From Sphaerodactylus townsendi (taxonomy: Eukaryota): a stretch of 64,000 nt of DNA. Below the pieces are notes generated by a model, which saw only the letters and a list, made by a program, of their open reading frames with translations, was not told where the DNA came from and ran no database searches. This document shows positions 3,756-46,400 of the stretch, piece by piece (positions within the stretch are counted from its first letter, which is position 1; each line of letters starts with the position of its first letter). A program made the position numbers and the translations under genes. The DNA lies in NCBI RefSeq assembly GCF_021028975.2, contig NC_059429.1:100750001-100814000 (forward strand). The letters are read 5' to 3'.

Positions 3756-3972
3756 AACTGGCTGTTGTGGGTTTTTTGGGCTGTGGTCTGGTAAGTTTTG
3801 GTCTTAATGTTTTACCCCATCTATGGTTGGCATCTGATGCATGTCATGAGATGCCACATGCCTCAAAAGATGCCAGCCATAGGTGCGGACAAAAACTACC
3901 AGACCACGGCCACAGAGCCCCCAAAACTCAACAGCCCGTTGATTCTGGCTGTGAAAACCTTTGACAGTACAT
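3756..3972. mobile_element. Inverted pair of Penelope-like pLTR fragments
   Basis: The left arm is the reverse complement of the right arm (gatgccagccatag...ccagaccacggccacagagccc...caacagcc); homologous to the copies at 1603 and 47148. Confidence 0.65.
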
Positions 3973-5290: not shown

Positions 5291-8200
5291 GCCTCGCCAT
5301 GTGGTTTGCATGTCCTCCCCTGCCTCGCTGCATTCAGGCTGCCTGTCAGTTCCTCCGAGCCGCAGCAGCCCTCTGAATTGCACAAGGTTTTTTGTAGCCT
5401 GTTCTCACTGGCCACACTACATTTCTTTAGCCACACATGGACGTCCCTTGCTTCTGGCTGCCATGCTAGAACATCGGGATAACCTGCACGACGTGGATAC
5501 ATCTGTTCTAAGGTTATTTTACTGGGTTGTTTTAGGGACCCTGTGCAGAAGAGGCATCCTTGCCAGTGTCACTTTCTGTTGTATTCTTGTTTCTAAATTT
5601 TGTGCACAGAAACTTAGTTATAGACTTGATAGGTACCAACCTGCCATTGACTGCTAGATGAAGTCTGTAGGAATAAATGACCTGTCTAAATTCCAATTGA
5701 GAGTTGGACAACCCTACATGATAACAACCATCCCTGGTGTTCAGTTAGAACAGAGTTGTATTTGTTTATGTATGTACTTAATTTGTAGAGCACCTTTCTC
5801 CCCCGAGAGCTTCTGAAAGCAGCAGCAGCAATTTGGAGCTGCTACACTATGCACAGAAGTTTATACATCCCTATATTTTTGCTGCTGCTCCTTCAGACTT
5901 GGTGAATTCAGGAGACATTGCCCTAAACTTGTGCTGAGACTTATTATTATAGTATGTCATCACACTATTATTATAGTATATCATCACTCAACAAAAGAAA
6001 AAATATTTTTTCTTCTTCTTTCAGGTCTAATAATAGGGAAAATTCACCACAGAATAAATAAAGAGCTAGTACAGGAATACCTGAATACTTTAAATGAACT
6101 CAAATCTCCAGGGTTTGATGAACTACAACCCAGGGTATTAAAAGAACTGGCAGAAGTCATCTCAGAACCACTTGCAATAATCTTTGAGAACTCCAGGAGA
6201 ACAGGAGAAGTCCTAATAGACTGAGCTAATTTTGTCCCCATCTTCCTAAAGGGTAAAAAAAGAGGACCCAAACAACTACCGCCCAGTCACCCTGAAATCA
6301 ATACCAGGAAAGATTCTAGAGCAGATCATTGAGGAGATAGTCTGTGAGCACTTGGAAGGGAATAATGTGATCACTGAAAATCAACATGGGTTTCTCAAAA
6401 AAAGTAATGTCATACTAATCTTACCTCTTTTTTTGATAAAGTGACAAACTTGGTAGATGAAGGGAATGCTGTGGACATAGCATACCTTGATTTTAGTAAG
6501 GCCTTTGACAAGATGCCCCATGATATTCTTGCAAGTAAGATGGAAAGAGGTGGACTAGAAAAAGCAACTGTTAGTTGGATTTGTAATTGGTTGACTGGCC
6601 GAACACAAAGAGTGCTCATCAATGATTCATTTTCATCCTGGAGAGAAGTGAGTAGTGGAATGCCACAGGGTACTGTCCTGGGCTCAGTTCTATTCAATAT
6701 TTTTATCAATGTCTTGGATAATGAAATGTTAATCAAAATTTGCAGATGATACCAAATTAGGAGGGGTAGCTAATACCCTGGAGGACAGGGACAGGATTCA
6801 AAATGGTCTGGACATATTAGAGGACTGGACCAAAACTACCCTACCATGATTTTTTGGGATTTTTGGAGGATGCTTGAAATATAAGCCCTACTAGAATGAT
6901 TGCTCAGGGCCAGCAAGGTTATCTTCTATATCAACTATAGGCAAGTAGGCCAGCAAATGTGCCTGAATCATATTGTTTTAATTCTTGGACTGCCAGAGAG
7001 CTACCTGAGGTCATAGGCAGCCTCTCAAATGTTGTTTTGGAGCTGTCTGCATTTGGGTGTGAAACTATGGTAGGTAAGGTTTTGTGTCCAGAGGCAAATC
7101 TCTGGGAGAGAAGTAATGTTCCATATCGCTGTTGATGTACGTGATACTTGTGTACTTTCATTGACTCTAGATGCAATACTTAACTTCTGTAGCGTCTATA
7201 ATACCTGCACATGCACTGACATTGCAGTCAGTATAAAAGTGAGATACTTTATTTCTGAAAATACTACTGGAATAAGCTTGAAAGCAGTAGGACCAGTCTG
7301 CAGGATGGCTCTGACGCCATTTCAAGAGGATATGAAAATGTCAACTCAGACAGTGTCAGCTACAAATCTTTGTGTCCTTTTGTTTTGGTAGAAACCAGTA
7401 GCTGGTGTCTTCTTACAGCTGAATTAAAGGTGCTAGTTTAAAATTTACCTTTGAACAGTCTCCATGGATGAGTGAAGTGGAGGAGAGTTTGGTGGAGAGA
7501 AATTCTTGGTGTTTCTATGCAATCTTGCAAGCAAAAGTTGTCAGAATTCTTTAAAGCACAGCAAAAATATGGTCTTTTTCTCAATGGAAAACTGCAGTAA
7601 TTTATCTTATGCATTTGTTGGCAACAAGCAAAAAGGCATAGATTTGGTTGTCAAGGAGCCCCAAGTTTTGTGGTACTCTGAAAGAGATTAAGTACTACAG
7701 TATTGGTATAGTGAACAACAAGTGAACCAGTAGATAAGTTATATAATAAAAATTCTTGTAAATTTGTATGACTTGCAGTAGTTTGTATGACTTGGGAGCA
7801 TATAATTAACTCAATTCCCCTAATTCATTCTCTTCCTTAAATAAGACCCTTTCAGTTTTGTCTAATTTAGATCATATGCTATTAACTGTTGTCTGAAAGT
7901 TTTAATTTATTCTTTTACAGAATTCTGGGCTGAGATTGCCAAAGAATTTTACTGGAGAAGTCAACACACTGGACCATTTCTGCACTACAACTTTGATGTC
8001 ACGAAAGGAAAAATCTCCATTGAGTGGATGAAAGGGGCTACAACTAACATTTGCTACAATCTGTTGGACAGAAATGTGTATGAGAATAAACTTGGAGACA
8101 AAATAGCTTTTTACTGGTAATATTTTGCTTTTTATTATGCTGTCTCGTATAAGCCTTAGAAATGAAAAAAAATTCTTGTGCCATTGGTACATTTTGTGCT

Positions 8201-11200
8201 GATCCAGGGTATAGAGTCCTGAATGGTGAATAATAATGAGCACTTTATTGTTAGAGCTAATTTTCTGTTGAACTTGCTTGAGAAAGTAATTAAAGAAGGC
8301 ACACTTTTTTGGAAAAGGGGGGAATCTGCCTCAATTGCTTCTGAGTCATCAAATTCTGTCAGGTTCCCAGTTATAAGTCTTCAGTGCTGCTGCTTAAAGC
8401 GTCTGTAAAGCTTTCAAAGGCTTTATCAGTGGCTTGTATGTACTTCAAAAAGTCCTCTAGAAAACTTGCTAAAAGCAGTTGTCAGTTTCCTAAATAATAG
8501 GTGCCTCAGTAGAACACAAACACTAAAGTTCATTGGAAGGGCAGAGACAACTTTCATCATTGTGCTGTTAAAAATTCTGATTTCTTTCTTTCACCTTTCA
8601 GTGCAAAGTAATGGTCACCCAGTGAAGATTAGAGATCTGATCAGAACACAGGAAGCTTAAGGTGGGAGGCAGAATAGGGAATACTGTCTGTAGAGCAGGT
8701 TGCCACTGTAGAATGTCGTCATCTTCTTTAGCATTCATGATGCCTCCCTTTTGCAAGAAGACCAATAACTCTTTTTCAGATGAAGGTTATTGCTCTTTCC
8801 TTTCTTGCGCCAAGGAATAATATAATTTATTTCCTTTCCCTAACAGTTCTAGTTCCTTTTTCTTTGATTAGTACTTGTTTACTTTACAGAACAACCAGAA
8901 AATCAGGAAATGTGGCATGCAGTTCAATCCAATGTATATTTACCGGGAAGCAAGCCCCACTGACTTCATTAGAACTTAACTCTCAAGTAAATGTGTGTCT
9001 GTTACAGCTGTGGTCATGTACACGTCTTAGATGCAGGCTTTTACGAAGTACATCATGTATTTACTTTTTGTTTTATTTTTGGTTTAGTGGGTTTTTTAAA
9101 ATTGTTATTGAGATAAAAACAGTCCTCAAAATCTGTTAAAAGAAGCAAGTGGAATTTCAAATTTTCAACTTCTGAGCTATTTCAGTGATGGGTATTTATT
9201 AAATTCATTGGTATCCCATCTTCATCCACAGTGGGGACCCAAAGCAGATTACATAGTTCTCCTTTCCTCCATTTTATCCTCACAGCAATCCTGCAAGGTT
9301 GGTTAAGGGGATATAGTGTAACTGGCCCAAAGTCCCTCAGCAAGCTTCCATGGCACAAGTGAGGATTTGAACCTGGGTCTTGCGGATATTAGGCCCCTTC
9401 TGCACATGCAGGGTAATACACTTTCAATCCACTTTCACAATTGTTTGCAAGTGGATTTTGCTATTCCGCACAGTAAAAATCCAGCTGCAAAGTGCATTGG
9501 AAGTGGATTGAAAGTACATTATTCTGCATGTATGGAAGGGGCCTTAGTCTGACACAGTTAACTACTATACCACACTGACTCTCAGATTGACTTTGTCACG
9601 CTGCCCATTGCATGGCTGTAGCTGGTTGTGGTATGTTCTGCAGAAAGAGGCTCTGGCGAGTATCCTGGCATCAAGTGTAATTGAGATTTCTTTGGACTCC
9701 TGTAGAACATTATTATCTTGAGTTGTATCAGTTAATACTTGTTGTGGGGTTAGTTATTTTGATAGGCTTTGCATTGATAGTATTGATCCTTGTTAGCTAT
9801 CTTCAGCTATCTACTAGAACAGGGGTAGGGAACCTGCGGCTCTCCAGATGTTCAGGAACTACAATTCCCATCAGCCCCTACCAGCATGGCCAATTGGCCC
9901 TGCTGACAGAGGCTGATGGGAATTGTAGTTCCTGAACATCTGGAGAGCCGCAGGTTCCCTACCCCTGTACTAGAAGATGGGACATAATTTTTAAAAAAGC
10001 AATAATACTGGTAATTCTGTTTATCAAGTTGTGGGAAAAATTGAGGTGCGTGGGGTGTATATCACCATAAGCATCTGTGAAAGATGGGCAGCATAAAAAT
10101 GAAATACATTTCATAAGCATGATGAAACAGTTAGGAAGTGGCTGCAGGGTTGCTCACTCACTTCCCTCTTTCCTGAAATATACATTCAGGCTACAGTGCC
10201 TTAACTGTTACATCGGTAGCCATGTTGGTAGTTACGGTTATAACTAACGATTTAGGTTCTGCAGAATCTGGGATCTGAAACCAGCTTCAGAGTGGTTTTA
10301 GATTCTGGCTTAAATAGGGAAGCTCTAACATTTACTCTAACATTTTAATGTTTGTGGGGACAGAGGGTTAACAGTGGCTAGGCCTGGTAGCAGGAATTTA
10401 TATTTTCTGAGAGGATATTAAAAGGGTGTATGGAAGACAGTGTGCTATTTAGCCTGAATGTCTACCCCTTCTTCCGCATTAACTCTGCACCAGCCGTGTA
10501 TAAAAAGGTAGTCTAGAAAGATGAAATATAGTTTACTTCTAAACAGTGTCAGCAATATGCATCTGCTTGTTTCTTCTTAAAAATTAGGTTCAAGTAAGGA
10601 GAAATTGTTGAAGGCTATCGTGGTTGGAGTCAACTGACTGTTGTGGGTTTTTTGGGCTGTGTAGCCATGCTATAGTTATTTAGTTCCTAAAACTACCAGA
10701 TCAAGGCCACACAGCCCCCCCAAAAAACATAACAATCAGTAAGGAAATTAAAAAAAAATAGCAGTAGACTGTTAACTCTCACCCTCGTTTTCACCTGTAG
10801 ATTTCTATGGTGCCAGGTACTGGATTAAAAACTAAAATAAATGTTCCAGTTTCAAAAAGGTGTTGCTTTTATCTCTTCCTAGATACTAGCATGATCTTAC
10901 TAAACAAATATTGTTTAGTTTCTGGTTCAAAAGAACTTTATGCTGCTAAAGAGTAACTTGTCCAAGGCAACAGAACATACTTTGTTATGAATTAATTAGG
11001 TTACCAAAATACATAAACATTATTTGACTCTCTAAGGGCAGCATACTGCAAATGAGTTGTGGAAAGCAAAATGGACAGCAGATGGATGCACGTTTCAAAT
11101 GTGGAAATTTATTTCCACAGGGATTCTGGCTTGATCAGATAAACAGAAACGTGCAAAATGCATAACTGCATGCCTCTGAATATATTTTTCTTTAAAGAAT

Positions 11201-23200: not shown

Positions 23201-26200
23201 TAAAACAACAAGGGAAGGGAAAGAAAAAGGGAGTATAACAATATTAAATCAAGCAGTTAACTAACTTTTCAGGAGAATAAGAAAAAGAAAGGAAATTGAT
23301 AGGTGGAGAAAGCATTTAAACTGCAAGGTATACTTAATATTAATTAAAACCGGTTATATAAACACAAGGGAACAATAAACTTATGAAGGAGACATGCAGA
23401 AAGAAGGAAAACGGAAAATACATTCATGTATACAATTTGAAAAAGGCAATAATTATTTGACACAATACATAAACAAACCTACATTTTTATTAATCAGGAA
23501 CCAATGTGTAAATGGCAAAACTGTTGAGAAGAGAACTTGAATAATGTTCGTGTTTTTGGCTCTGGAGCCTGTTGCAACAGTCCAGCAAACGGTACAAGTG
23601 AGTTCGTGGCAAAAGTTCTGCGTAGGCACCCCCTTTGCTGATGAAAAAGTGAACGAGGCGACAGCGATCAGCTGGAACAGTTGCGTAGTTGCAAACACTT
23701 TGGTGGGAGGGGTGCAAAGACAGGTTCCATAAAGCGACATTTGTAAAGTCCAGCAACAGTGAGGGTCTATTGCAATGGAGCTTGCTTGCTTGCTTCGGTT
23801 CCCTAATGGCGACAACTGGCATCTGGGTTCCTGTAGCTTAGGACTAAAAACGGTTAAGGTAGGGGCAGAGGCCGTTAAGGGCATGCCTGAAAAGGGAACT
23901 CCGTTTGCGAAGCGTTCCGTAAATAGCAGTGCTGAATGGAGGCTGCTACGTTAATGGCATAGCCTTCTAGACAGTAGTAAAATAGATTAAAACTTGGAAT
24001 TTAACAAAAAAACCTTTGCGGTTGTGACACAGTTAAAAAATGGCCGAAACAAATACAATAATTTAGGCTAGCACCATAACTGAAAAAAAATTAAATTAGA
24101 TCAGGGCAGGGTGTAGGCCTTATGGGTAGAAGGGCAAACACATGTACGGTAAGTTGGCTACAAATAAACTGCATCGCTTAAATTCGTTGCAGGTCCTGTA
24201 GGCACCAAGAAGTCTGAGCCTGCCTTCTAACGTGGGCTGGCTTGTAAGAATTATGGGCATGCATTTCTAATGTGAAGGCTAAATCAAAATTTATCAACAA
24301 TGCATTGTGAATCAGTAATAATCATGAAAAAAACACATCAAATGTTTTGATAGAAGGAAAAATAAAAAGTAAAAGGCATTTCACTTTAGCCAAAAATAAA
24401 ACAAAAACAGAGCAAAAACAAATCCAAAGAGGTGGGGCTGGTAATCTGGAGCTTCTTGCTACAGTTGGGGAAAAAAGTTAATCCCTTTCACCCCCTTTAT
24501 CTGTGTAAGATCAGTTAATCAGGTGGATGAGTCTTGTAGTCTCTTATCACTTGAAGGTGTGGTTCAGTATTGGCTATGTCCCATTTCTAAAGCAGTTTGG
24601 AAACAGAGAGCTCGCCTTAGATTTCCCAAGAATAACTGCCTTTGAAACTGGAGGCTCTACTTTTGAGCTGTAGTCAGAGATTACAGAATTTAAAAGGTTC
24701 AAACATGTTTCCCAATTCTCTTTCTTTCCTTCAGCTGTAACAAGGATAATTAAAGTGCTCTTTCTTGGCACTAGATTTTTGTCAGACATTCTAGGTTCCT
24801 TGGAACAGCTATCTTATTCCTGTTTTGTTCTGTCACTGAGGCTTGCCTTTCCAGGGGCATCTGCAACCAACTGTACTCTATCTGGAGTCCTGAGTTCAGA
24901 ACTTTGCACATTCTCAGAGGCTATTATGACTTCTTTTGGTCTTTACTTTGAGGAAACTGAAGCAGCAAGCATCCTCTCATCTCCTTGAGAAGGAGGGGGA
25001 CTTGGGAGTGGCTCAGCTTTACTGGCTTCATTATTTTTCCTGTTGCTTTCTTCTTTAAATTTTATTTTAATTTCTGCACTTTGTAAATCAACTTTCATTT
25101 GAGCAGTTTCTGCCTTGTAGGTTTTTAACTCTGACTTAATTCTACCAAATTCACTCTGGGTTTGCATTTGGTCTTTGAGACAAGCTGTTACTTTTTCTCC
25201 AAGCTCCGATAGCTCTTGTTGAGCTGTTTAATTTCCAAATCTTGTTTCCTAATGCAGTGTTCCAAATGTTTAATCTTATTTTGCCTCCTAATGAGACTCT
25301 CCAGTTTCTCAATCTTGTGTTGCCAACTTTCCCATTCTCTCTTAGGGGAATCTGGGAGAACGTGTGTAGGTCTCTGGGTCTGGGTGGCAGGCTTCTCTAG
25401 CCCTTGGATTCCTATTCCTGCCTTTATTTCAACTCTCTGCCAGTGATCACTGGTGGTCTCTGGCTGGAGCCTTGTGGAACCTGCGCATCCCTAGCAAGAA
25501 TTACCTAATTCTTCGGAATGGGTGAGAGAGAGCACAGGTTTGGGCCCCTTCTGGGCCTGTTTCTCCAGGACATTAGGGAGAGAATTAAATCAAGATTTCT
25601 GTGGGCTGCTTGTCACATAGGGTCATGTCTGTATCTAGGTCCCTTAGCTTAGCCCAGATTTCTGCTCTTATGGCAGGGTTATGCCAAGGGGACTCCCTGG
25701 GTTCTAACACTTGCTGGGGAGCTGAGGAATCACTCTGTGACTCAGGCCTGTCCTGGAAATTATGTCCGAGGAAGCCCAAGAGTCCCTCGGGGTGAACGGA
25801 GGCAACTACTGCCGTTTGCATGTTCAATTGTTGTTTGAGGGCAGCTATTTCGTGGAGACAGGCGGCATGACTGACCTCTCGTTTCTGTGCCTTGTTCTCC
25901 AGGGCCATGAAACGTGCCGCATTGTGGGTATTATATAATTGCTCTTTGAGTCTTAGAAGTTCCTGGTCTCGGTCAGCAAGGAGCTGACATTTGCCAGTAT
26001 ATATATATATTGTATGAACTAGAAAAATCATATTAAATCTTTTATTCCATAAAGCAGGGTAGAAAGGGTAGGGCAACAGGTCCAGGTATTAAACTTAAAC
26101 ATTGTATATTTAATCTGATAAAACTCTAGATTTAACAGTGTTTGCCTCCTCACTGTTCGGGATTCTCACACGTTCATTAATTTCGAAAATGTATACTAAT

Positions 26201-29200
26201 ATTTATTAATTAATTAAATGTATAATTAATATTGATTAATTAATTATATTTTTATCTTGCCTTCCTGGCTAAAGCAAGGTTCAGAGTGGCTAACAGTGTG
26301 AAAACCATAAATAACCTATATCTAATTAAAATATTAAATTATTAATAAAGTTACATCACCTGATCATGGGTTCCAGATGTATGATTTCTGATTTATACCC
26401 AGCATGAGGAGCCACAGAACATTCACTTTCCTTTTTGGGTCTTACTCATTCTGTTAAAATAGAAGGACTTGGAACAGCACTGTTGGTTGGTAGAATGATG
26501 TTTCAGTCCTAGGTAGGCACTAAGACCCAAATGGAGCATTCTAAAACAAAGACGGTCCAGCATGTGGTGAATGGGTTTAACAATTTTGGAGTTTTTGTTT
26601 CTTTTGGTGAGACAAAGTATAGTTGATTAGTCTGAGAAACACCATCTCTCTTTTTTTTCCACAGGTGTGAAGAAAGGAGATAGAGTTTCTATCTACATGC
26701 CAATGATTATTGAACTGGTGATAGCTATGCTGGCTTGTGCCAGAATTGGAGCACTTCATTCCATTGTGGTAGGAATTTTTGGTGTCAGTTCTGCCATGAA
26801 CTGCCTATTGAAATGGACTGCAGCCGCAGTAGATAACTAGTGGAATAAAGCTGGTTACTTAATTTGATGTTTCTGATTTGTTTGTTTTTTGGTTTGGAAT
26901 CTTCCTTTTGACTGAGCCGATGCTAGTGTAACCATTTTATGTTTTCAGGGAGAACCTCAGCGGGCTGGGTAGTCTTTTTGGGGAATTTGTGCTCTCACTT
27001 CTTGGTGATGCTTTAGGCTTCCTCTCTAGTTTCAGTGATCTTTACTATAGAGACTAGGGGGAATTCCTACAACCATTTTTTTCCAGTTCCTTAGGGGTGG
27101 GAAATTTGGGCTTGAAATTTCTACCCTGGGCAGGTAAATTGTGGCAGTCAATCTTTCTGGGAACCTTGTATTTCATCACTAAAATTTGGATTGAGAAACG
27201 GCTGAAAAAATTCCAAGAGGCTTTAAGATTCCCCACAGCACAAATGTGAAAATTACTAGTTAGTCTGGAGTGCTAGTACTGAGAGTGTTCCTGTTTGCAA
27301 CTGTAATTAAAAATGGTTTCATTTCAGTGACTGAATTGAGTGATTGTGTTGTCTTGTCAGTTCGCAGGTTTTTCATCAGAATCTCTTTGTGAGAGGATTC
27401 TTGATTCTCACTGTTCTCTTCTCATTACTGCAGGTAAAAAGCCTCCTCTAAATCTAGTTATCAAAATACTTCAAGCTTTAGGATTAACAGTTAATGAGGA
27501 AAAAGACATTCAAGCAACTGGATTTTTTTTTAGGGGAAGAGGGAGAAGGGGATGATGGGTAGCATGTTTAAGCCTTGCTTTGCATCCAGGTTGGCTCTGA
27601 AAGCAGACTTCATTAACCCAACAGCCCTTTACCATGTAGTAGTACATAACAATATACAATTCAGACAATGCAACTTGTGGAACTCTAATGAAGAAACAAA
27701 GTCTTGCTTCTAGGTAGAAGTGAACCCTCACCAGTACTAGAAAAATTATATTCTTCAGAGATCCATGCGTTCAAGAAGAGGAAATGGATAATTAAAGGAT
27801 GGAACCTTTGCCCTCATTCCAAACCTGAAGCGCTGAGTTGCACTTCTCTCCCCAAACCTCCTGCTGACCTAGCTTCTCTACTGTTAAAGTACTATTCCTT
27901 GGAAGCTCTTGGTAGTTATTGATGATGTTGTATTAAAACAGTATCCTACTTTTTTATTCGGTGACTCCCTCAGATGTTTATTGCCAACATGTATTTGAAA
28001 TTGATTGTTTATTAGCCTTGCTTTTAACGCTGCTTTGGGGATGGTGATGTTAGACATTCCACTTCGGCTGCCATACTGAAATAATAATAATAAAAAGCCC
28101 CGCGGCATTTTTGTGATGTCTAGTAACTTGGCAGTTGCAACTGTGCCTTTTAGTTTCCTAAGAAAGTATTTTTTAAGAGCTTACATATTAGACCTTTGGC
28201 AGTTGCCCCATATTTTTATGTCCCAGTGATGACTCTGTTAAAGAACCAATTCATGGCAAAGGGCTGTTTGGGCCATGCAGATTTCTGGTTGCTCCCTAAA
28301 GAATATTCCAAGTATTGTTCACTTGAGCCCCTTCCATGGATGAAGTTTTACTGATTTCCTCAGAGGCATCTATTGATTGTCTTTATTTGCAAACTTTCCT
28401 TTAAGTTAATTTAATTGTTTATACTCTTTTTTCTTTTCTTTAAGTCCATATGGTTCCTTTTCTTTTAACTACCTTCAAGTTCTTGCAGGCTGCTCTGGAA
28501 AGCCAGTTTAATGATTTACTTTCCATTTTGTAGATGCCTTTTATAGAGGTGATAAGCTAATTAACCTGAAGCAGATAGCAGATGAAGCCTTGCAGAAATG
28601 TAAAGACAAGTAAGTCCATTGGAATGAAGTGGTTCCTGTTGGAAGCTTCTGCTTTTGTGTAGATGTAAATGTTGGCAGTTACGATCTTTAAAATGCCATA
28701 GCTCAGTGGTATGGATGGATATTTGGGAAAAAATTACAGAAATTCTATTAACCTTTTGCTCTTGTGAGAGGCTCTTTTGAAAGCACCTATAACTGCTTTA
28801 GGCAGTCGTTTTCATTTGATCAGTTAGCTGCTTATAAATCAGGAGGAGACGGTGTTCTAGCATAAAATACTGTTAATGGTTAATTGGAACAGAGAAGTAA
28901 ACATGCTCCCATATCAGTAAAAACTATATAGAGATAAAATGTGACTTAACATGGCTCAATTCAGACATCATCACAAACTAGGAGTGCCTGATGGCTGCCC
29001 AGCAATCCTGGGAACTTTGAGGGCAAGGCAAGAGGCAGATGCAGCATTGGGCTGTTTGCTGACATCACTGCTAGGTTTTTGCCTGGACATGATGTCAACA
29101 TATAGATGAATGTTATTTCTACCTCCCACTGTTTCTCCTGCAAGACTAGGAGGCAAGATTGGGGGTGGGGCTTAAACCTGAAGCAGGCATTGGCAAGCCT

Positions 29201-32200
29201 ACCTCAAACCATGGTTAAGGAAGCTTAACTTAGGCTGTTTCCGCACAGCCCAATACACTGTCCCTAGGGCGCTGTTTACACAGCTGTTATTGCTGCATTG
29301 CAGCAGTGCTGTGCTCGTGCCGCCCAAGTGGTGTGAAGACGCCGCTTTTGAACCTCGCTCAGGGAGCGAGGGTTTTCAAAAGCAGCGTCTTCCTGCCAGG
29401 GCGGTGCGACCCCCCAGGGGTCGGAGGGCAGTGTGGGCGTGTCTTTCCAGCCATGCAGAGCTGCGTAGGAAGGAAAGGTAAGTGCCTCGCAAACACCCTG
29501 GGCAGCTCTGTGCAGAGCCGCCCCTGCAGGCATCAGCAGCACTGGGACTGCCCGCACGGGACTGTGTGAGCAGTTTGTCAATGGATGCAACGTGCACAAT
29601 CACTGCAGAAATAAACGCGCTGCATCAACCGCTTATTATTATCAATATTCCAACAAACATTAAAGTGCAAAAACCAACTGTGCAATGATGACATACAACT
29701 CAATACGATATACCACATAAATCACAATAGCAGCTCTTTGGTGTCGTCTTCAACAGTTCTCTTAATTTCTCAGTCCATATACATACTAGGACGAAATCTC
29801 TCTCATGAAGACTATCAACCAATTTCAACGTGCTGCGTTCCCTGTATTCCGTCAACCTGACTTGTTGTACATCTGGTGAATAAGCGGACTGGTCTTGGCC
29901 AAGTCCGATCGACCCAATGTATACACAATTAACGGATCGCGCTATTGTAACCGTTTTCGATTCGATCTTCTTCAGATTATGATTTAAATTCGACAGTCTT
30001 GGTTGGGATAATCCAGGGGTAGGGAACCTGCGGCTCTCCAGATGTTCAGGAACTACAATTCCCATCAGCCCCTACCAGCATGGCCAATTGGCCATGCTGA
30101 CAGAGGCTGATGGGAATTGTAGTTCCTGAACATCTGGAGAGCCGCAGGTTCCCTACCCCTGGGATAATCCTTCAAGGTGATATAATCTGAAGAAGATCGA
30201 ATCGAAAACAGTTACAATAGCGCGATCCGTTAATTGTGTATACATTGGTCGATTGGACTTGGCCAAGACCAGTCCGCTTATCCACCAGACATACAACAAG
30301 TCAGGTTGAACGCAGCACGTTGAAATTGGTTGATAGTCTTCATGAGAGAGATTTCGTCCTAGTATGTATATGGACTGAGAAATTAAGAGAACTGTTGAAG
30401 ACGACACCAAAGAGCTGCTATTGTGATTTATGTGGTATATTGTATTGAGTTGTATGTCATCATTGCACAGTTGGTTTTTGCACTTTAATTCACTGTTTGC
30501 ACTTTAATGTTTGTTGGAATATTGATAATAATAAGCGATTGATGCAGCGCGTTTGTTTCTGCAGTGACTGTGTGAGCAGTCCCGATGCTCCACGACTTTA
30601 TTTAAGCAGGTGGGAGTCTGCTGCTCTGGCCATGCGGAAACGGCCTTAGTGTAATTTACAAACCAAATTTTGTGATTGGCTAGCAAACCAGAATTGGAAA
30701 CCATAGCATGGAGGGCTCTTTTTCGTGAGTTATAGTTTTAACCAAATATGGTTTACTGTCATGGCCTACTTGAAGAACCAAAGTTACAGCTGCTATGTGG
30801 AGGTCGCTGAACCTAGAGATAGGCATGCTGAACAGATGGAAAGTAGGAACAGACTTGTAAACTTAGGATGCCTGACTGTTCAGAAGAGTGAACTCCATGA
30901 TGTAGATTTTAAAAAATGATTAATGATGTAAGCCATGACTTTGTGTGATTTTGAAATGACCTACTGATGCCTGAGATAAATTTGCTGTAATGCAACTGGT
31001 AAACTGCCTCCACCCCCAACAACTTTGCTACCCAGACCTTTTTTATCATGTTGATTAACATACTTTTTTATACCATAAACACTCATTTCTTCACTCTAGA
31101 GAAAGATTTCCCAATGATTGCAGTAGAAGGGGAGCTACAGGCAGATCAGTGGACCATTTTGCCCAATACTTGGCAGGTGCCCCCAACCTTATATTCTGTT
31201 TTACACTGGTCTATGATTTTGGAAGAATCTGAATTCATACTGACAGAACTTAATTTCCACTTCCTGATTTGAGATCCCCCCCCCCCCTTGGATAAAAATG
31301 GCAAGCGGCTTATACATGTAGTCAGCTTGCAGAGTGGCTACAAAGGTCCCTGATGTCTTGAAATCCTGTATTTACCTTTAGGGAGGGTGTAGCAAAAATG
31401 TTTTCATAATTTTGAAAGTGGATGTTGGTCTCTGCAGATTGGGGCATTCACTCAGGTTAGGACCTCCAATGTTTGCAGCGAGACTCTGATATCCCTGCTG
31501 CTTTGTAATTGCTCTTATTCAGCTATGTATAGCAACGCACCCTGCATTGTCTGCTGAGTAAAGCTGGAAGGGCATTTATCAGTTGATTTGTAGAACCACA
31601 TGTTTTTTGTAGTAGATTTCGTCTTGGCTTAACACTGTGGTTTCTCTTATAGACTGAAGTTTTCTTGAACCGGAATATCCTCCTTCATTCATGTTTTTCT
31701 ACCTATGATTCAAGCTAATGATTTCACTTTTCTTCCCCTTGTAGGGATGCTCCTCTGCAAAGGTGCATTGTGGTCAAGCATTTAGGGAGGGAAGAACTGT
31801 TATCAGATGGGCCCAGCAGCAAATCCCCACCTCTTAAGAGACTCTGTCAAAGTGTACAGGTGGGTGGCTTTGTTTAATTTGTCCTAAAGATCTGTTTGAG
31901 ATTTAAATACACACTGCTTTTGAGAGAGGCTCTAAGTCTTCTTACTGTGGGGATTTCAGGTATCGTTATGGAGAACTTGATTGTCAAGTCGCAATTTAGT
32001 GTTTTGAAATGCAACTCTGTCTCACATAGCATTTGTATTGCATCTGTGTGTGATATGATTGTGTAACTCTCTGAAGCACCTGTTCATTAGTACCTGTAAA
32101 GTTACTGGTGACAGGAGCTGTCCAATTAATTTTGCTTTTGATTATTTTTCTCTTTCTAGGGTGAGAAATGTCAAAAGAGTGCTCATAAAAAGAAAGCAAA

Positions 32201-35200
32201 GCAGTAAACATGAACAAGGCTATTTTTCTCCTTCTGTGGCCTGCTATTTTCTTATGTTCCAAAACCTTATTTCAATTTTAATGTAATTTTTAATTCATCT
32301 ACAGCGTTTAATCATCATTTGTTTCATATCTGAACAGTCACTTATCAAAACAGGTGCAAAGCTAAAAGTTGGCACACTTTATTTTAAACATTTGTGTGCT
32401 ACCTTTCCCCTCAGATATGGTGTGCAGAGCAGCAAGCATCAAAACGTTAAAATATTTTAAACATTAAAGCAGCATTTAAGTTAAGGCATTTGTGGGTTGC
32501 CACCTGTGGGTTGCCATCAAACAACAGAGACACCCAAATCAGAAACCCTAAAGATTACTGGAGTAGACAGGTAGGTTCATATGGGAGAAGGTTCTTCTTC
32601 ATGTAAGTAGGCCCCAAGCCATGTAGGACTTTGAAGGTCTTTCCCACATCTTGAATTGATCCCGAAAGCAAATTAGAAGTCATTGTAGACTTCCAGTCAG
32701 TGTAGCTTCCAGACTGTCTTCAAGGGAAGCCACACATTCAGCATATGCAGTAATCTAATCTAGATGTTGGCAGGGCATACACTACAGGGAAAGACTTTTG
32801 TAGTGACACATACTCAAGATAGACTTGTTACCAGAAAGGTACTTTTCACATTTCTTCCTTGGAACTAGTGAACTGAAGTCTTATTTCATGAAAACAGGCA
32901 GTATTCAGACAGACAGCAAGCCACACCAACTGTATGATAACATGGAAGGGTATAGGAGTTCCTTTTCTAATCTGCTAGGATGTGGCAGTGCTTGCAGAAT
33001 GCAAACTACTTACACGTGTGTATTTATTCATTCCAGGGTGTTCTCTTCTTTCCACAAAAGAATAAAAGGAATTTATATGTGCAAAGGACAGGCATTTCCA
33101 GCCCAGCAGTGGTACCTTCCTGTACCATTATGTTTGCACGGATCTTCTGCTATTGTTTTAGAACTAGGAGCTCTAATGACCCTAGTTCTGATAAAAGAAG
33201 CAACTTTATTAGTGGAGCTGGAAAACTACTAGGTAGAAATCAATCTTGGCAGCAATACTCCACATTGCCAGCCAGGCTGTCTGGGTTGCTCCCAGTTGCT
33301 TATGCCCATTTTATCATAAATGTGATATGTCAATATTGTCAATATTGACTCCTATGTCAATATTGCCTCCTACAAAACACCCTTCTAGTTTCAGATCTGC
33401 TTTGTTAATACCCAGTGCTAACTGTTATCTCCTGTCATAGCTCCAGGGGAATGTGTGTGTTTTGGCAAGTTTCCATGAGCACAGAGGTCTCCAGAGCCTG
33501 GCTTCTGTGTTAGAGACTGTTCTGTAGGACAGTATATTCACAGCCTTGTCACAGCCAAGTGACCCTCTTTCCAGAGAATTTTCCATGCAGGTGTACCTTA
33601 ATGCCCACTGTGAGCAATTCTTGGGCCAAGAGTTGATCAACAACTTTGAGTTGTTGACTTTGATCTCATTCTCACTGAACAGGTAAACTGATAAACCTGG
33701 ATTGTAGCACGTCAGAAAAGGTTTACATGGTTGAATGCTTATCAGTACAAAAAGCATCAGCTTTCTCCATGACACTTCAGCTTTCTATGTATCACAAAAT
33801 TATTTTGTGAAGAAGCAATGTGTTGCGTAACCCCGCTTGCCTTGTGAAATGGTACAATCTGTACACAAGCATACTATCTCAGTAAGTACTCGGTTTTTGG
33901 TGTTGGCAAAACTCATAAGAGCCCTGCTGGACCAAACCAATGGACCAGATATTTAATAACTAGACTCCATCTAGTCCATCATCCCTTTCCACACACCGGC
34001 CAACCAGTTTCAATGCAGGGCCAACAAATAGCCCTTGGAGGCTGATACTTTCTCTTATTGTCTCAGAATATGGAGGGTCCCTTTATTCACTGTGACTAAT
34101 AGCTACTGATGGACCTCACTGTGACTAATAGCTACTGATGGACCTACACCGCCCAGAGCCCCTCGGGGATTGGGCGGTATAAAAATCCAAATAATAAATA
34201 AATAAATAAATATCTTTCATGAACTGGTCTTTCACCTTTTTACAGCCATCCATGCTGTTGACCATTACTTACTTGTTGAGTAAAGAAATATTACCTTTTT
34301 TCTGTCCATTACATTGAAATATCCCTTTACTAGCCTCATAGCAATTCCTTTTGTGGGTTCCAGCAACAATTTAGGAGCCCCTTTTCCTATGTCTTCATCC
34401 CATAGTACCTCTGTAACACTTTAAGCTCAGGTTATGCAGGTATTCACTGTGCCATTGTGAGCCAATTGAGGCTGGCAATTATCAGATGGCAGCACCTGTG
34501 TCATGCCCCCCTCCTCTCCCACATAATGCCAATCTTGTTAGTTAATTTATTTTATTTCTACCACACAGCTTTCCTGGTAAAGCTGGCCAAGAGTGGCTTC
34601 CACCAGTTGTACATATAAAATAAATATTACAGATATTTAATAACACAATTCAACCTACTATTATTAAACCCTAAATTATAAATGTTACACTTGTAAATGT
34701 TACATGAGTTTGTCTTTTTGGATGGAGCCACAGGAAAAAAGCTCCACATTGTTTGTGTAATGTGTGAAACGTTCCCACAGATGCGGTCACTTCTCTGACA
34801 CTTGTTTCCTGTCAGTTACGTTTAATTTGCTATTGCTCCCTTACTAGCTTCTTGTCTAGCAAGTCAAAAGGGGAGGGCTAAATATATTGTAGTAAATAAA
34901 TCAGTTGCCTTTTTGAATTCCTGTTGGTCCCTTCCTTTTTCACCCAAAGTCCCCATACTCGTTGCCCCATTAGACATGTTTGTAGTGTGGAAATTAAGAT
35001 GTTGGCAATATTTTTAAGTGGCAAGTCTTGATCCAATAGGCTTCTTACAGCTTATGGTACAGGATTTTTTCTTGGGGAAACAATAATTGTGTGAGGATGC
35101 TTTGTTCTTCTTTTCAGTCTCATTGGTATAACTGACAGAAACATTTCCAGAAGCCTTTCATTTGTCAAGGTGGGGTGTAGTGAGCAGCTAGAAGGAATAT

Positions 35201-37461: not shown

Positions 37462-40400
37462 GGATCTCATTTGTATGGGAGCTTGTGCCCTAAAAAGTTT
37501 TGTTGTTGTTTAAGGTGTTACTGGACTTGAATTTTGTTCTGCTGCTATAGACTAACCCTGCTATCCACCTGAAACTATTCAAACGATTGTTTCCTTGGTA
37601 CATTAATGCATCCAATTCTCCCCCACCTAAAAAAGCTACACCCTTTATAAATGAGAATAAGAGGAAATGAGAAGACTTCATAGTGGAAGAAAAGGGATAA
37701 TGGTAATAAGAGAGTCAGTCACTACTACTGGTTCCCTAGCCTGGACTTCAGAGTCAGCCACCAGTATGGCCACCATGAATGCAAATTTCTGTTGCCCAGT
37801 TGTATGTGGCCCTCTCAGTGCAAGCACCACGCACATGCACATCTCATTGTACTTGCATTGCATAGTCATCTGTTCTAGGTCAGCAGGTTCTGCACCAAGT
37901 GGATATCAGTCTAGCTACAAATAGTGAGCGTCTGCTGTCTGCATCCCCACCTCCCTTGCTGAGGAACAGTCTTGCTACTTGTGCAGCTCACTGGAAAAAG
38001 GGTGTTGAACTATTGGTTAATGTCTATTTAAAGACCTTTAGTAACTGTAATATAGGAGTATGGTGCTATACAGGTTTTGAGTTCCATTATTGTTCAGCCT
38101 TAGGGAGTGGCTAATTGCAGGGGGAGGCGCTTTATAACCCATAGGTTTTATTGTTATGGGAGTGTAAAAAGATAGTGTCATACCTGTATGCTTTCAGGGA
38201 GGTGAATTGCTTCTTTCCAAAAGTTTACAGCTGTTGGTAATGAAGGCTGGGCCACAAAAGGATGGGGGAACCCCACAGAAACCTGCCTGCGGATATCCTG
38301 TTCCTGGTTGCAGGAGTCCTGCCACTGTTTGGAAATGATGGCATTTTAAATTTGACTCCTTGGGCTCGAACTTTCAAAGAAGATTTCTTAAATCCAGTGA
38401 TAATTGGGAGCAGGTATTTCTGCACTTGTCAAAAAGAGAAAAAGTTCATTTTGCAGTGCTAGCTGCTAGACGTTAATGCCCTTCACAGATAATATAATGA
38501 TTACCTTTTCAAGTTGAGAGTGAGATTAGGGAGAGGTGACTTGGTTTTGCCTTAGAATAGCAGACTTTTCAGTGTGTTTGTGATGTTTTACTCAGCCTCA
38601 TGTCCCCGTTTCATGACTTAATTGACACATACAGAAATGCTAAGTTGTAGGGTTGTATTTTGCTGCTGGAGCTGCCTTGCCATACGCCAGAATCCTCAGC
38701 TGCAGGCTCTGACTTCATACTCCATCTCTTATTGTTACTGTTTTCAGTTCATGCACGCTTCTGCCTCTCTCTCAGCTTGGGAATGCTTTTCCCTCGATGG
38801 GAGGGGAGAGATACATCAATAAAAATGATGGAGCCCCTGAAGAAGGGCAAGTAAAGAGCTGCAATCTCTGCTTGATCTTCTTCTGGTGTGTGTGAGAGTT
38901 TCAGGTTTAGAGAAGGGATCACAGCATGTCTAAACCAGGGGTCTGCAACCTGCGGCTCTCCAGATGTTCATGGACTACAACTCCCATCAGCCCCTGCCAG
39001 CATGGCCTGATGGGATTTGTAGTCCATGAACATCTGGAGAGCCGCAGGTTGCAGACCCCTGGTCTAAACTATCTTCAGGTGGGTAGCTAGATCTGCCGTA
39101 GAAGAGCAAGCTTCAAGATCAGTAGCATCTTAAAAACCAACATAATTTCCAAGGTTTGAGCTTTCCAGGATCAAAGCTCCAGTTGTCAGATGCAAGGGAG
39201 CACTGGCTCTTGAAAGCTCATACCCTGGACTCAAATCGTACTCTGAACTGTCATTTTAATGTGCCTTTATACTCAGTTCAGCTGAGTATTCAGAGGGAAA
39301 TACAGTACGCTCAGGTATAATGCCACTACAATCCTTCCATTTTGCACATTTTTATTTGGTAAGTATTTAGGGTGCATATATAATACAAAACTTCAAAGCA
39401 ACTTCATGGAGTTGCTAATTTGTACAGGGAAGAGGTGCTCAGCTTGTGTGTTGCCCTCCCATCATGGGAGAAACATGTTCTTTACCCCTTACCTAACTAT
39501 CGTTTTATACTGTTTCTGCCCTGGCTGTTAGTGGATCTTTTGCTTTGTTTTCAAAGACCCAGCTCCTCCCCCCCCCCCCCCCCCCCCGGGCGCCACACAC
39601 AGAATGTGTCTTTCTTTCTGGTTATATAATTGTTGAGCAGTAAGACAGAAGTGTCCCCTGCCATATTTTTTCTCTGCTTCACTACTCACTCTGCCCTCCT
39701 GTATCTTTATCTGAAGTACCCGAGCCCTTCGGGGGAGGGCGGTATACAAATCAAATAGTACAATACAATACCTTACTTGAAACAAGCCCTATTGAACAAA
39801 TGTCTCTTAATTTTCACTACTTTGTTCAGAATTAGGAAATTGGTGCCCATAGTGGTGAACACATCCTCCCATGTGCTGCATACAAGATATTCTTGTGTGT
39901 GTGTGTGTCTGGGATAGCTGGGGTTGCTGTCCTTGGGCAACTAGGCTAGAGTTAGGGATGGACTTGATGGTGGAGAACCCCCTTCCTAATACTGAGTATA
40001 AATTAATGTGGCTGGCTACCACCATCTCTTGCAGAATGTCACTGGGCTTTTGGAGAGGTGTTTTGCTGCAATGGTCTCTCAGTTCCTTGATAAGTGGACA
40101 TCTTATTAAGTGAATGCAGCTCCAATAGAAGCACTGCTTAGCGTGCATATTTAATACATTCAGTTGTTTGTGAATAAGTCTCCATGTTTGGAGCATTTGT
40201 TGCAAACTTAGATGTTGGAGTTCCTGGTATGCCTAAAAATGCTCTCAGGAGATAGCAGGTATACACCAGTGGCTAAGAATATGAGCTACAAATCAGGGAG
40301 TATCTGGCTCGAATTCACTAAGTGGCCTTACACAAGCACTTGCTCTTGTACAACAGATGGGGGTATGTGTTGAGTATAAGAGTGATAATACTGGCCTACC

Positions 40401-43400: not shown

Positions 43401-46400
43401 AAAAACAATTTTTTCCCTGTACAAAACTGATCACATAAACTCACCTTTAGTGAGCCGTCATGTTAAAAGTAAACATTTTGTGCTTCAGAATACTATTTTG
43501 AAGTATTATTCTTGTAATAGGCAAAGCAGTCTGTGTTCTTTCTTAACAATTTTAATGAATATCTTGTGTTCCTTGTTTCAGGGAGTTGTACATACTATAG
43601 GTGGATATATGATTTTTACGGCTGCTACATTTAAATACGTATTTGATCACCATCCTGACGATATTTACTGGTGTACAGCTGACATTGGATGGATAACTGG
43701 TCATTCCTACCTCACGTATGGGCCTTTGGCAAATGGGGCAACCAGTGTCTTAGTAAGTTCTATGGTATAAGTTATAGATGTAAGGGAAAAGTGTGTCTGG
43801 GAATGCTGAATTCCTTGACAGAAGTTGAATTTGTATGTCATCTCAGGTGCTGATGTGTTTATATCAGTGTCTATAAACATTGTCATCAACGACTTCAGGT
43901 CAAGAAAACAATTTAGCAGTGTGGATATATAAAGTTCAGTGTGGTGCCAAAGCCATATCTTGGAACAGAGATTCATGCTGTCCAGAGCCAAGGAGATGGG
44001 TTCCATGTTGTGTGATAGCCTTAAAACTGAGTGCCATAATATTTCTCTTTTTCATTCTGCCATTCTTCTGGGAGAATTCGCCAGAGCAGATAAGCCAGCT
44101 TGTGCCAGATAGTGAGACTGGTTGCAGTTAACATTTGTGCTGGTCACTATTGTTTGGGCTACAGGACTGCATTTTGCACCACATGCTGGAAGAAGCAACA
44201 GTTGAAGTGGTTCTTGCTAACAGTTGTGTCTCCTGCTCAGTTTGAAGGGCTTCCCATTTACCCAGATGTTGGCCGTATGTGGAGCATCATTGACAAGTAC
44301 AAGGTGACCAAGTTCTACACAGCACCCACTGCCATCCGCCTCCTTATGAAGTATGGAGATGAACCTGTTAGGAAGTAAGCATGACTTCAGGAGAACAGGA
44401 CAGTGCATGTGTCCTGTATGAACATTTGAAGCTGCCTTATACCTAATCAGACTATTTTCCTATCTAGCTGAATATTGTCTAATCTGACTGGAGCAGGTAT
44501 CATAGGCTGTTGGATGGAAAAAGCTCTTCAACAACACCTACTGCCTGGGGTCCTCTAACTGGAGACGCCTGGGACTCAGCCTGGGACCTTCTGTGTGCAA
44601 AACCAGATGCTGTGTTACGGGGTTTTTCAACAGATAGCCCCTGAGCTAACCTGCAGAATAGCTCGTGCATGCCTTAGATCAGGGGTAGGGAACCTGCGGC
44701 TCTCCAGATGTTCAGGAACTACAATTCCCATCAGCCCCTACCAGCATGGCCAATTGGCCATGCTGACAGAGGCTGATGGGAATTGTAGTTCCTGAACATC
44801 TGGAGAGCCTCAGGTTCCCTACCCCTGCCTTAGATAGAAGATCCAGGAAAAGATTGCTCTGCTTATCTGATAGCTTCTTTTTGTTGCTTTCCCTAGTTTA
44901 TATTCTGTTTCTATGACAGAATGAAACTTGAAAGTTTGCCAGGGGAGGGTTGGGGGAGGAAGTACCTCAGGATATTTGTCACTGCTTAGCAGTAGCTCTC
45001 ATTAAAGAAAAGGTTGGTGACCTCTGTTCTATCACTTAACCCCAGATTATCCAGCATGCATTTAGAATTGGACCAAAGCAAACTGCCTCAGCCTTTATCC
45101 ACAGGCACTTAAGTTTTGGGAGAATACTTATTTTTAACCTTTTCATTTGTGTTTTGTAACAAACTGATGAAGTGGGGGAGGATAATATTTGACTGGAACT
45201 TAGTTTGAGTTCTACTATTGCAGGTGCTAGAAGATACCTGCCCAAATCTTCTCCAGATAACGGTTCTTGCAGTTAGTATCTCTTGGCATGCCTCTCTAAA
45301 TAACCTTTTCTGGATTTCTAGAACTGACATTCAAATCTAGTATCTAGTGAGTGTCCTCTGTGCTGCAATCTTCCTGGAATGTTCTTAGAACCTTCATGTA
45401 GAACCTCCCCCCCCGCCCTCCTTTTATTTTTAAACACGTGTGCTTCTTGTGGCAGGTACAGCAGGAAGTCTCTGAAAGTGTTAGGAACAGTTGGGGAACC
45501 CATAAACCCAGAAGCTTGGCTGTGGTACTACAAGGTTGTGGGAGAAGAGAGATGCCCTATAGTGGATACCTTCTGGCAGACAGAGACGGTGAGTTCTTAC
45601 GCTTGCTTGTTGATGTGAATAGTGGGATCCTCCTTGCTCTTTCCAAGCATTGAGATTTCATCGCCAAATATGCTGGAGTCTGCCTGTAGTATAAGAACTG
45701 TTGCTTGGAAATGCGCGGCTCAAAACATATCTCCCATCTCTTTGGTCTGACTTTTGCCAGTATGCTGGTAGGGGCACTGTGTACCGGCATCTGCTTTCCT
45801 GTTTTTCTGAGCCAAGCTCTCCTGTATAATTACTCTTCTACTTCATGGCCTTCATTTAGATATGTGAATCAGCATGTTGAGAACTAACCTTCTGCCCTAT
45901 TCAGACTGTAAAAACATTTAGGTGGTTCTTTTCTAAAGAAATTGATGTTTTCATGACCATTTTTGGTTTTTTTCCTCCAGGGTGGCCATGTGTTGACTCC
46001 TCTCCCTGCCGCCACACCAATGAAACCAGGATCTGCAGTGAGTATGGCTCTAGCTTGTTCTTTTTTGTTTGTGGCCATGCTTTTTCCTCTAGTGGTGACT
46101 TTGAAATTGTTTCTGGGCAGGGGGCACCACACCTGCATAGTGCTACTCTTAAGAACATACAGAAATACCCAGTGTGGGGTGACTGTATGTTGATAAGCTT
46201 TCCTCCCTGTTTGAATGCTGACCAGCAGCATTTACTGTTATCTTAACGTTACATACCCTTCTGTGGTGAATTCTTTAATATGGGCATATACACAAAGTTC
46301 AATATCTTACTCAGTTCTGGGCTAACTTCCTTTCCCAAGTCCAGCTTCTGTCTTCTTTTTTCTGGGATAAAGTGTGTACTTTTCCAATTCTTTAAAATTT

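Follow-up and report, generated by a model that had tools for sequence, protein, structure and literature searches.

The foldback in an intron of ACSS2 is, with a probability of roughly 0.87, a real and young insertion of an inverted pair of Penelope-type pLTRs, and it belongs to a family distinct from the Poseidon elements of the host. We read it as Penelope-like because it combines a Penelope-type tail, a complete predicted hammerhead, inverted geometry and a target duplication, in agreement with one of two hypotheses (a Penelope-like family) of an earlier sequence-only reading. ACSS2 runs on the + strand of the window (the whole stretch of 64,000 nucleotides analysed), and the foldback sits between its exons near 28530-28610 and near 31750. 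The host repeats point to a squamate. The insertion, two inverted arms with a spacer between them, covers 29575-30565 and is larger than first outlined (29600-30567). Its parts and surroundings are:

29233-30645, no strand assigned: host TIR element, split by the foldback, with TIR and TTA on both sides
29560-29574, + strand: left copy of the target duplication, 15 bp, 15/15 identical to 30566-30580
29575-29602, - strand: Penelope-type 3′ tail, complete only on the left arm
29578-29625, - strand: short ATG frame of 15 codons, entering the tail in the Poseidon frame and ending in TGA
29595-29981, - strand: left pLTR arm, read outward from the axis
29981-30181, no strand assigned: spacer, about 45 nt after subtraction of the MITE and one duplication
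30014-30161, no strand assigned: young palindromic MITE of 148 nt, with an 8-bp duplication (30006-30013 / 30162-30169)
30182-30567, + strand: right pLTR arm, stopping at the start of the tail, with 4/5 of the CpG transitions
30566-30580, + strand: right copy of the target duplication, 15 bp, 15/15 identical to 29560-29574

Three elements are nested here. The TIR element, which we take to be Harbinger/PIF-like, contains the foldback, and the MITE, presumably a hAT, lies in the foldback spacer; the duplications show that they arrived in this order. The arms align head-to-head over 368 columns with 8 substitutions and indels of 1, 13 and 19 nt, and the copy carries no RT or GIY-YIG ORF. The left junction of the insertion is identical (0 differences) in contigs of the SRA runs X1, X2 and X4. 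In run X5, flank contigs and an arm contig of 146 nt again show 0 differences, with no junction contig among the matches listed; one X5 contig joins across 29571-30601 and represents an empty-site paralogue of the TIR element. When empty, the target site in the TIR element forms a small hairpin (29557-29578, GGGACTG...CAGTCCC), of which 6/7 nt are in common with the start of the tail, a match that could have primed the right arm. Copies of the MITE at 30013-30162, 9820-9972 and 44680-44832 are near-identical (1/148 differences), which points to very recent MITE activity, and the depth of the MITE contig in X5 is very high (~10^6). Apart from noise, Rfam matched only miRNA models, on the MITE hairpin.

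The left arm runs past the point at which the right arm stops, and the additional sequence is a tail of 28-31 nt. Located exactly at the insertion end, it agrees without gaps with two Poseidon tails, at 20/31 positions with the one at 1694 and at 19/31 with the one at 3937. Besides the left-arm tail, the only sites scoring at least 20 among 127,938 window positions were Poseidon tails (1694, 3937, 10635). The short frame opens with an ATG at 29625 and agrees with the Poseidon frame through the tail, as judged by eye; the TGA that closes it may be a decayed CGA. Similar features are described for rotifer Penelope in the available part of PMC3846280, namely an inverted pLTR that falls 37 bp short of full length, a tail of 31 bp that may be present or not, an ORF whose first 12-22 codons lie within the pLTR plus tail, and target duplications of 8-10 bp. 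The 15-bp duplication seen here exceeds that range and, like the lack of an RT or GIY-YIG ORF, counts against the Penelope reading. Since no such ORF is present, the placement in a clade rests on the 31-nt tail.

The host Poseidon family (1604, 3756, 10635, 47148) shows no BLASTN similarity to the foldback along the pLTR, the core and tail alone being alike. The pair at 3756, rightly recognised from the sequence as inverted pLTRs, is of Poseidon type, and the tail scan revealed another such pair with a tail at 10560-10690 (- strand). A decayed inverted pair at 39076-39230, directly after a MITE copy, seems to represent a second PLE family, which we take to be Neptune-type.

Both arms start at a CTGAAGA core, as had been noticed from the sequence, and each carries a predicted ribozyme:

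29924-29981, - strand: predicted type I hammerhead of the left arm, with helices I of 6 bp, II of 3 bp plus an extra A, and III of 5 bp
30180-30239, + strand: predicted hammerhead of the right arm, with helix I of 7 bp, on the same strand as the ACSS2 pre-mRNA

The sequence-only reading, which allowed for a minimal helix III, had left helix I unpaired. Pairing AACGG with CCGTT instead gives a helix III of 5 bp closed by a 15-nt loop, a UUA site and a helix I that pairs over 6 bp on the left and 7 bp on the right. Cleavage is predicted after 29930 in the left hammerhead; in the right one, a single CpG transition breaks one helix III pair. Each arm starts with the 5′ strand of helix I, and the Poseidon pair at 3756 has the same arrangement. 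None of 5000 shuffled arms contained such a hammerhead, and when the core was fixed and the downstream sequence shuffled, 18/20000 equalled it. A descriptor (helix I of at least 3) that was written and tuned after the sequence had been seen matched both window strands at three places, the two arms and the Poseidon copy at 47151. Set against the Penelope reading are the results of folding and of the hammerhead-model search that had been proposed as a check: the fold lies at -3.7 kcal/mol, 5.7 above the MFE of -9.4, with helices II and III at an ensemble probability <0.01, and the Rfam search gave no hammerhead at E<=10. Together with the helix III pair lost from the right copy, these results also speak against a functional ribozyme.

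In the accessible portion of PMC4209133, PLE hammerheads are characterised by a G10.1-C11.1 pair and one additional base inserted between 9 and 10.1, by a helix II of 4-8 bp, and by a helix III that is large where the PLE comes from a fungus or protist and small or minimal in animals. The foldback hammerhead shares that pair and that additional base, which follows position 9, and its 3-bp helix II falls below that reported range, a further point against the Penelope reading. The two arms are predicted to pair as a long hairpin in the ACSS2 pre-mRNA, which would hide the right-arm ribozyme. Candidate splice-like sites also occur in the pLTR leader. Elsewhere, 120 viral-contig loci matching a hammerhead-like pattern showed no BLASTN similarity to the arm; about 105 of these 120 (L088-L207) have in common a conserved motif made up of a CTGAYGA core, GAAA and a long ACGG/CCGT stem, which may be a phage hammerhead and is unrelated to the arm.

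The count of about 18 CpGs in a left arm of about 380 bp and 40% GC proved accurate, with 18 CpGs in the 386 bp of 29595-29980, a GC content of 0.399 and an o/e of 1.25 (about 1.2-1.26); the right arm has 14 CpGs in 390 bp (o/e 0.99). The flanks had been described as CpG-poor, which is true of the distant ones (o/e 0.14 at 27000-29229 and 0.13 at 30651-33000) but not of the immediate flank, the TIR element, with an o/e of 0.57. Among 386-bp windows with GC<=0.45 outside the element, 0/2558 reach an o/e of 0.9 (maximum 0.78). The four named sites of CpG change (acggtt/acagtt, gatcgg/gattgg, atcgta/attgta and gatgta/gacata) are all real. Substitutions between the arms affect 5/36 CpG positions and 3/332 others (Fisher p=3e-4 over the 368 aligned columns), four of the five CpG-site changes sitting on the right arm, which supports the proposed CpG decay after insertion. 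This bias likely reflects methylation-driven decay, the methylation being presumed. With an arm divergence of 3/332 outside CpG, the insertion would date from roughly the last 0.5-13 My at the reptile rates we take to apply.

It had also been concluded that the sequence came from a context without CpG depletion, which does not follow. When the CpGs of five window arms of the host Poseidon pLTR are pooled, 9 CpGs are obtained in 129 columns, restoring an o/e of 0.99; because of this, the CpG richness of the arms is no demonstration of foreign origin. Likewise, many vertically transmitted TEs show codon and composition bias resembling supposed evidence of transfer, according to the available part of PMC9099904. 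Two oddities remain: the low GC of the arms, and an o/e of 0.97 in their RT-like part compared to 0.07 for the CR1 relic of the window itself. Two intronic or open-frame segments of the window may be mentioned separately. That at 23453-23950 is intronic and CpG-rich, its o/e reaching 0.78, and an open frame of 165 codons on its - strand has no Pfam match; the other, a 167-codon open frame with a coiled-coil-like stretch at 25585-26088 (- strand), also without a Pfam match, is possibly a TE ORF relic.

In the SRA index, which covers near-identical DNA only, the arm is present in 5 runs under 2 organism labels, and X1, X2, X4 and X5 also carry host repeats or flanks. No RNA run was among the matches listed for the arm; this index of near-identical DNA gives evidence neither of silence nor of absence elsewhere. 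Diverged copies occur as well: record 8 of X1 differs at 13 of 122 nt, and record 28 of X5 at 23 positions over 160 nt, with 7 gaps in addition. Such paralogues are 10-15% diverged, with common variants under both organism labels, and among the matches listed the variants at 29702, 29713, 29723 and 30488 are each common to 3-5 X5 contigs. Since diverged copies exist and several variants recur in this way, at least two subfamilies can be recognised from the contigs. Summed depth in X5 is 13-46 over the arms and 0-14 over unique flanks, a few-fold excess in a measure that is no copy number, and the family is apparently small and low-copy. No full-length relative was present among the contigs listed, BLASTN of the arm against the window matched only the other arm, and phage and plasmid BLASTN gave no match. 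One 21-mer match in a metagenome was due to chance, as the phage-like ORF in which it lies shows no other similarity.

The second hypothesis of the sequence-only reading, which finds partial support, was a decayed, invertebrate-type non-LTR RT fragment. Two stretches of the left arm bear on it:

29663-29845, + strand: possible decayed non-LTR RT relic in the N-terminal register (DYQPIS vs NYRPIS), antisense to the pLTR
29740-29796, + strand: competing, weaker post-YADD RT-like block, in the register read earlier, overlapping the other in a different frame

Direct searches found nothing real. CR1-type RTs were therefore fetched with the window's own CR1 as bait and used in frameshift-aware profile alignments, with 255 post-YADD segments drawn from 67/120, 69/86 and 119/120 of the fetched records. 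With a profile of 69 diverse segments, the arm was equalled by 2, 5 and 0 of 300 shuffles and by 1, 2 and 0 of 278 window tiles; with a 188-segment profile, the figures were 0, 1 and 0 of 400 shuffles, a partly circular result as some segments had been chosen using arm pieces. Nearly all of this post-YADD signal falls within 29740-29796. No significance was reached with a vertebrate-heavy CR1 profile (17, 15 and 6 of 150 shuffles), nor with the upstream and downstream RT pieces of the earlier reading taken alone (332, 169 and 35, and 130, 61 and 7, of 400). The N-terminal register surfaced through a decoy control. Here the RT start is aligned with an open frame of 81 codons (29615-29857) at a score of 54, compared to 45 for the post-YADD register first proposed; it was matched by 0/250 DNA shuffles, 3/1500 amino-acid shuffles and 0/250 of a six-frame null. 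A full ORF2 profile gave 0/250 shuffles at both settings on the + strand; the - strand was not significant.

Frameshift-aware alignment thus yields a signal that beats shuffles, but in two incompatible registers: overlapping in different frames, they cannot both hold in full, and motif-level matches can be chance. With HMMER, among 2168 window ORF pieces, those of the arm rank right behind four true CR1 pieces, with E values of 0.53 and 1.1, or 0.036 when a region profile is used, all short of the inclusion threshold. The best pairwise score of the arm to the fetched RTs is 56, and no close relative, invertebrate-type or other, was retrieved among the 255 post-YADD and 212 N-terminal segments. 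Mean scores were 33.9 for vertebrate-labelled segments (n=44) and 36.6 for the others (n=168), in a set without arthropod T1/Q-type CR1. Pfam gave no match at E<0.5 in six frames, a word-based protein search in one frame gave 104 candidates of which 0 were at E<=10, and an ESM Atlas search with the 81-aa open frame returned no usable match. In viral contigs, neither the window CR1 nor the arm frame had an RT relative, and one RT motif pattern had no match. A phmmer search of 1.84 billion proteins returned two matches, both repetitive unrelated proteins. On balance, we slightly favour the presence of a non-LTR RT relic in the leader. The window's own relic, a vertebrate-type CR1 ORF2 at 5817-6846 (+ strand), ends just past the FADD motif. 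The searches also brought up 80 eukaryotic CR1/L2-type LINE loci (L008-L087) within prokaryotic genome records, more than 20 of them in one MAG, which are likely host contamination.

As to origin, we lean towards a squamate PLE family that is long resident, low in copy number and inherited vertically, with a pLTR rich in CpG because young PLE promoters and pLTRs are; this is at least as likely as a recent transfer. The restored Poseidon value and the diverged paralogues with variants shared under both labels agree with such a history, as do the transfer-like bias of many vertical TEs (PMC9099904, as far as available) and the frequency of Penelope in Anolis given in the available part of PMC7561263. 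It accounts less well for an AT-rich arm (40% GC vs 54% in Poseidon), for the contrast in o/e between the RT-like part and the CR1 relic, and for a hammerhead unlike that of host Poseidon. A recent transfer from a host without CpG depletion (an arthropod, a nematode or other), followed by slight amplification, would fit an AT-rich arm with an o/e of 1.2-1.26, and we nevertheless regard it as rather unlikely. In its favour, the RT-like leader is heavily decayed and has kept its CpGs, so that the decay would have occurred outside a methylated genome; the portion of PMC4209133 at hand reports a long helix III in PLEs of fungi and protists and not in its vertebrate PLEs; and PMC6050309, in the part covered, links ectoparasites to the transfer of other retroelements into squamates. 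That study and 10.64898/2026.07.22.740005 make transfer into squamates plausible in general, the foldback family being absent from the parts covered. However, no donor taxon appeared among the SRA matches (near-identical DNA only) or the fetched RT segments, four of the runs with the arm also carry host repeats or flanks, no fetched RT segment is a close relative, and CpG content is not diagnostic.

Two further explanations dispense with a Penelope element. If, as the second hypothesis in its strict form would have it, a decayed CR1/L2-type RT fragment had been made into a foldback by repair or twin priming, the + strand signal above shuffles (2, 5 and 0 of 300; 0, 1 and 0 of 400, partly circular; 0/250) would be explained, and the resemblance of hammerhead and tail would be chance. 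This requires three independent coincidences in the right places (tail, hammerhead and arm start), and there is neither a LINE 3′ end nor a Pfam or significant HMMER match, while the two overlapping registers and the non-significant vertebrate-heavy profile weaken the signal itself; we consider it very improbable. A single capture of prey or parasite DNA at a break has only composition in its favour. It is opposed by the target duplication, the tail and the diverged paralogues with shared variants; since diverged copies occur in host reads, a small family is indicated, and a one-off capture is scarcely credible.

Returning to the insertion of an inverted Penelope-type pLTR pair, we propose that a Penelope/Poseidon-type retrotransposon produced it as follows. 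Going by the Poseidon biochemistry in the available part of PMC11167929, a PLE RT/GIY-YIG protein would have nicked the target. That source places the tail between two internal RT start sites and reports that insertion in vitro persists with hammerhead mutants. cDNA synthesis would have begun at the two sites bounding the tail, the far end of the tail giving the left arm and its start the right arm; both cDNAs would have stopped just 5′ of the hammerhead, leaving head-to-head arms round a spacer of about 45 nt. The arms have since lost CpGs, likely via host methylation. Since it lacks an ORF, the copy was truncated or mobilised in trans. The leader of about 300 nt between hammerhead and tail, about four times that of host Poseidon, may derive from an antisense decayed non-LTR RT, which we judge a little better than even.

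The Poseidon pLTRs of Anolis (PAc; PMC11167929, as far as available) share with the foldback the head-to-head arms starting from a type I hammerhead and the optional tail at one end. Within the window, Poseidon shares 20/31 tail positions and the frame through the tail. The foldback differs in the distance from hammerhead to tail (373 nt vs 90 nt), in helix III (minimal in Poseidon, 5 bp closed by a 15-nt loop here), in its 3-bp helix II, in having no ATG at stem II, in GC (40% vs 54%) and in its apparently few copies. Adineta vaga Penelope, in the accessible part of PMC3846280, also has a slightly shortened inverted pLTR, a tail of about 30 nt, ORF codons in the pLTR and a TSD, which is 8-10 bp against 15 bp here. 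Its pLTR-bearing elements capture unrelated DNA between the pLTRs or in the ORF, whereas the putative relic of the foldback is inside the pLTR. Fungal and protist PLE hammerheads (PMC4209133, portion at hand) have the same type I fold and multi-pair helix III; unlike them, the foldback is in a vertebrate host, with a short helix II and a fold that is predicted only. Non-LTR retrozymes, as covered in parts of PMC7229834 and 10.64898/2026.07.22.740005, are likewise pLTR-related, non-coding units of 200-400 nt with a type I hammerhead, but form head-to-tail tandems, in contrast to an inverted pair with tail and TSD at the present locus. To CR1-clade ORF2 the resemblance is limited to weak RT-like + strand motifs below inclusion, with pairwise scores <=56 and no 3′ end. 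Judged from sequence, the unusual points of the foldback are its long helix III and its long, possibly LINE-derived leader.

A more specific history is conceivable and in our view doubtful: a Penelope family not yet described, whose hammerhead with its long helix III could cut as a monomer, would have had its pLTR rebuilt around an antisense scrap of LINE RT in an invertebrate, moved into a squamate lineage and still been inserting a few million years ago. If so, the AT-rich, CpG-intact leader would be the passport of a former host. A donor, if found, would add a documented PLE transfer into squamates, of which we found none in the open-access literature. Should no donor turn up, the case would warn that a CpG-rich, AT-rich stretch of a reptile intron may simply represent a young Penelope end. 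The annotation of PLE terminal repeats is poor, and a second tail in the Poseidon register, next to a hammerhead of another kind and a leader four times as long, would test the sufficiency of hammerhead and tail as cis signals under the internal-initiation model.
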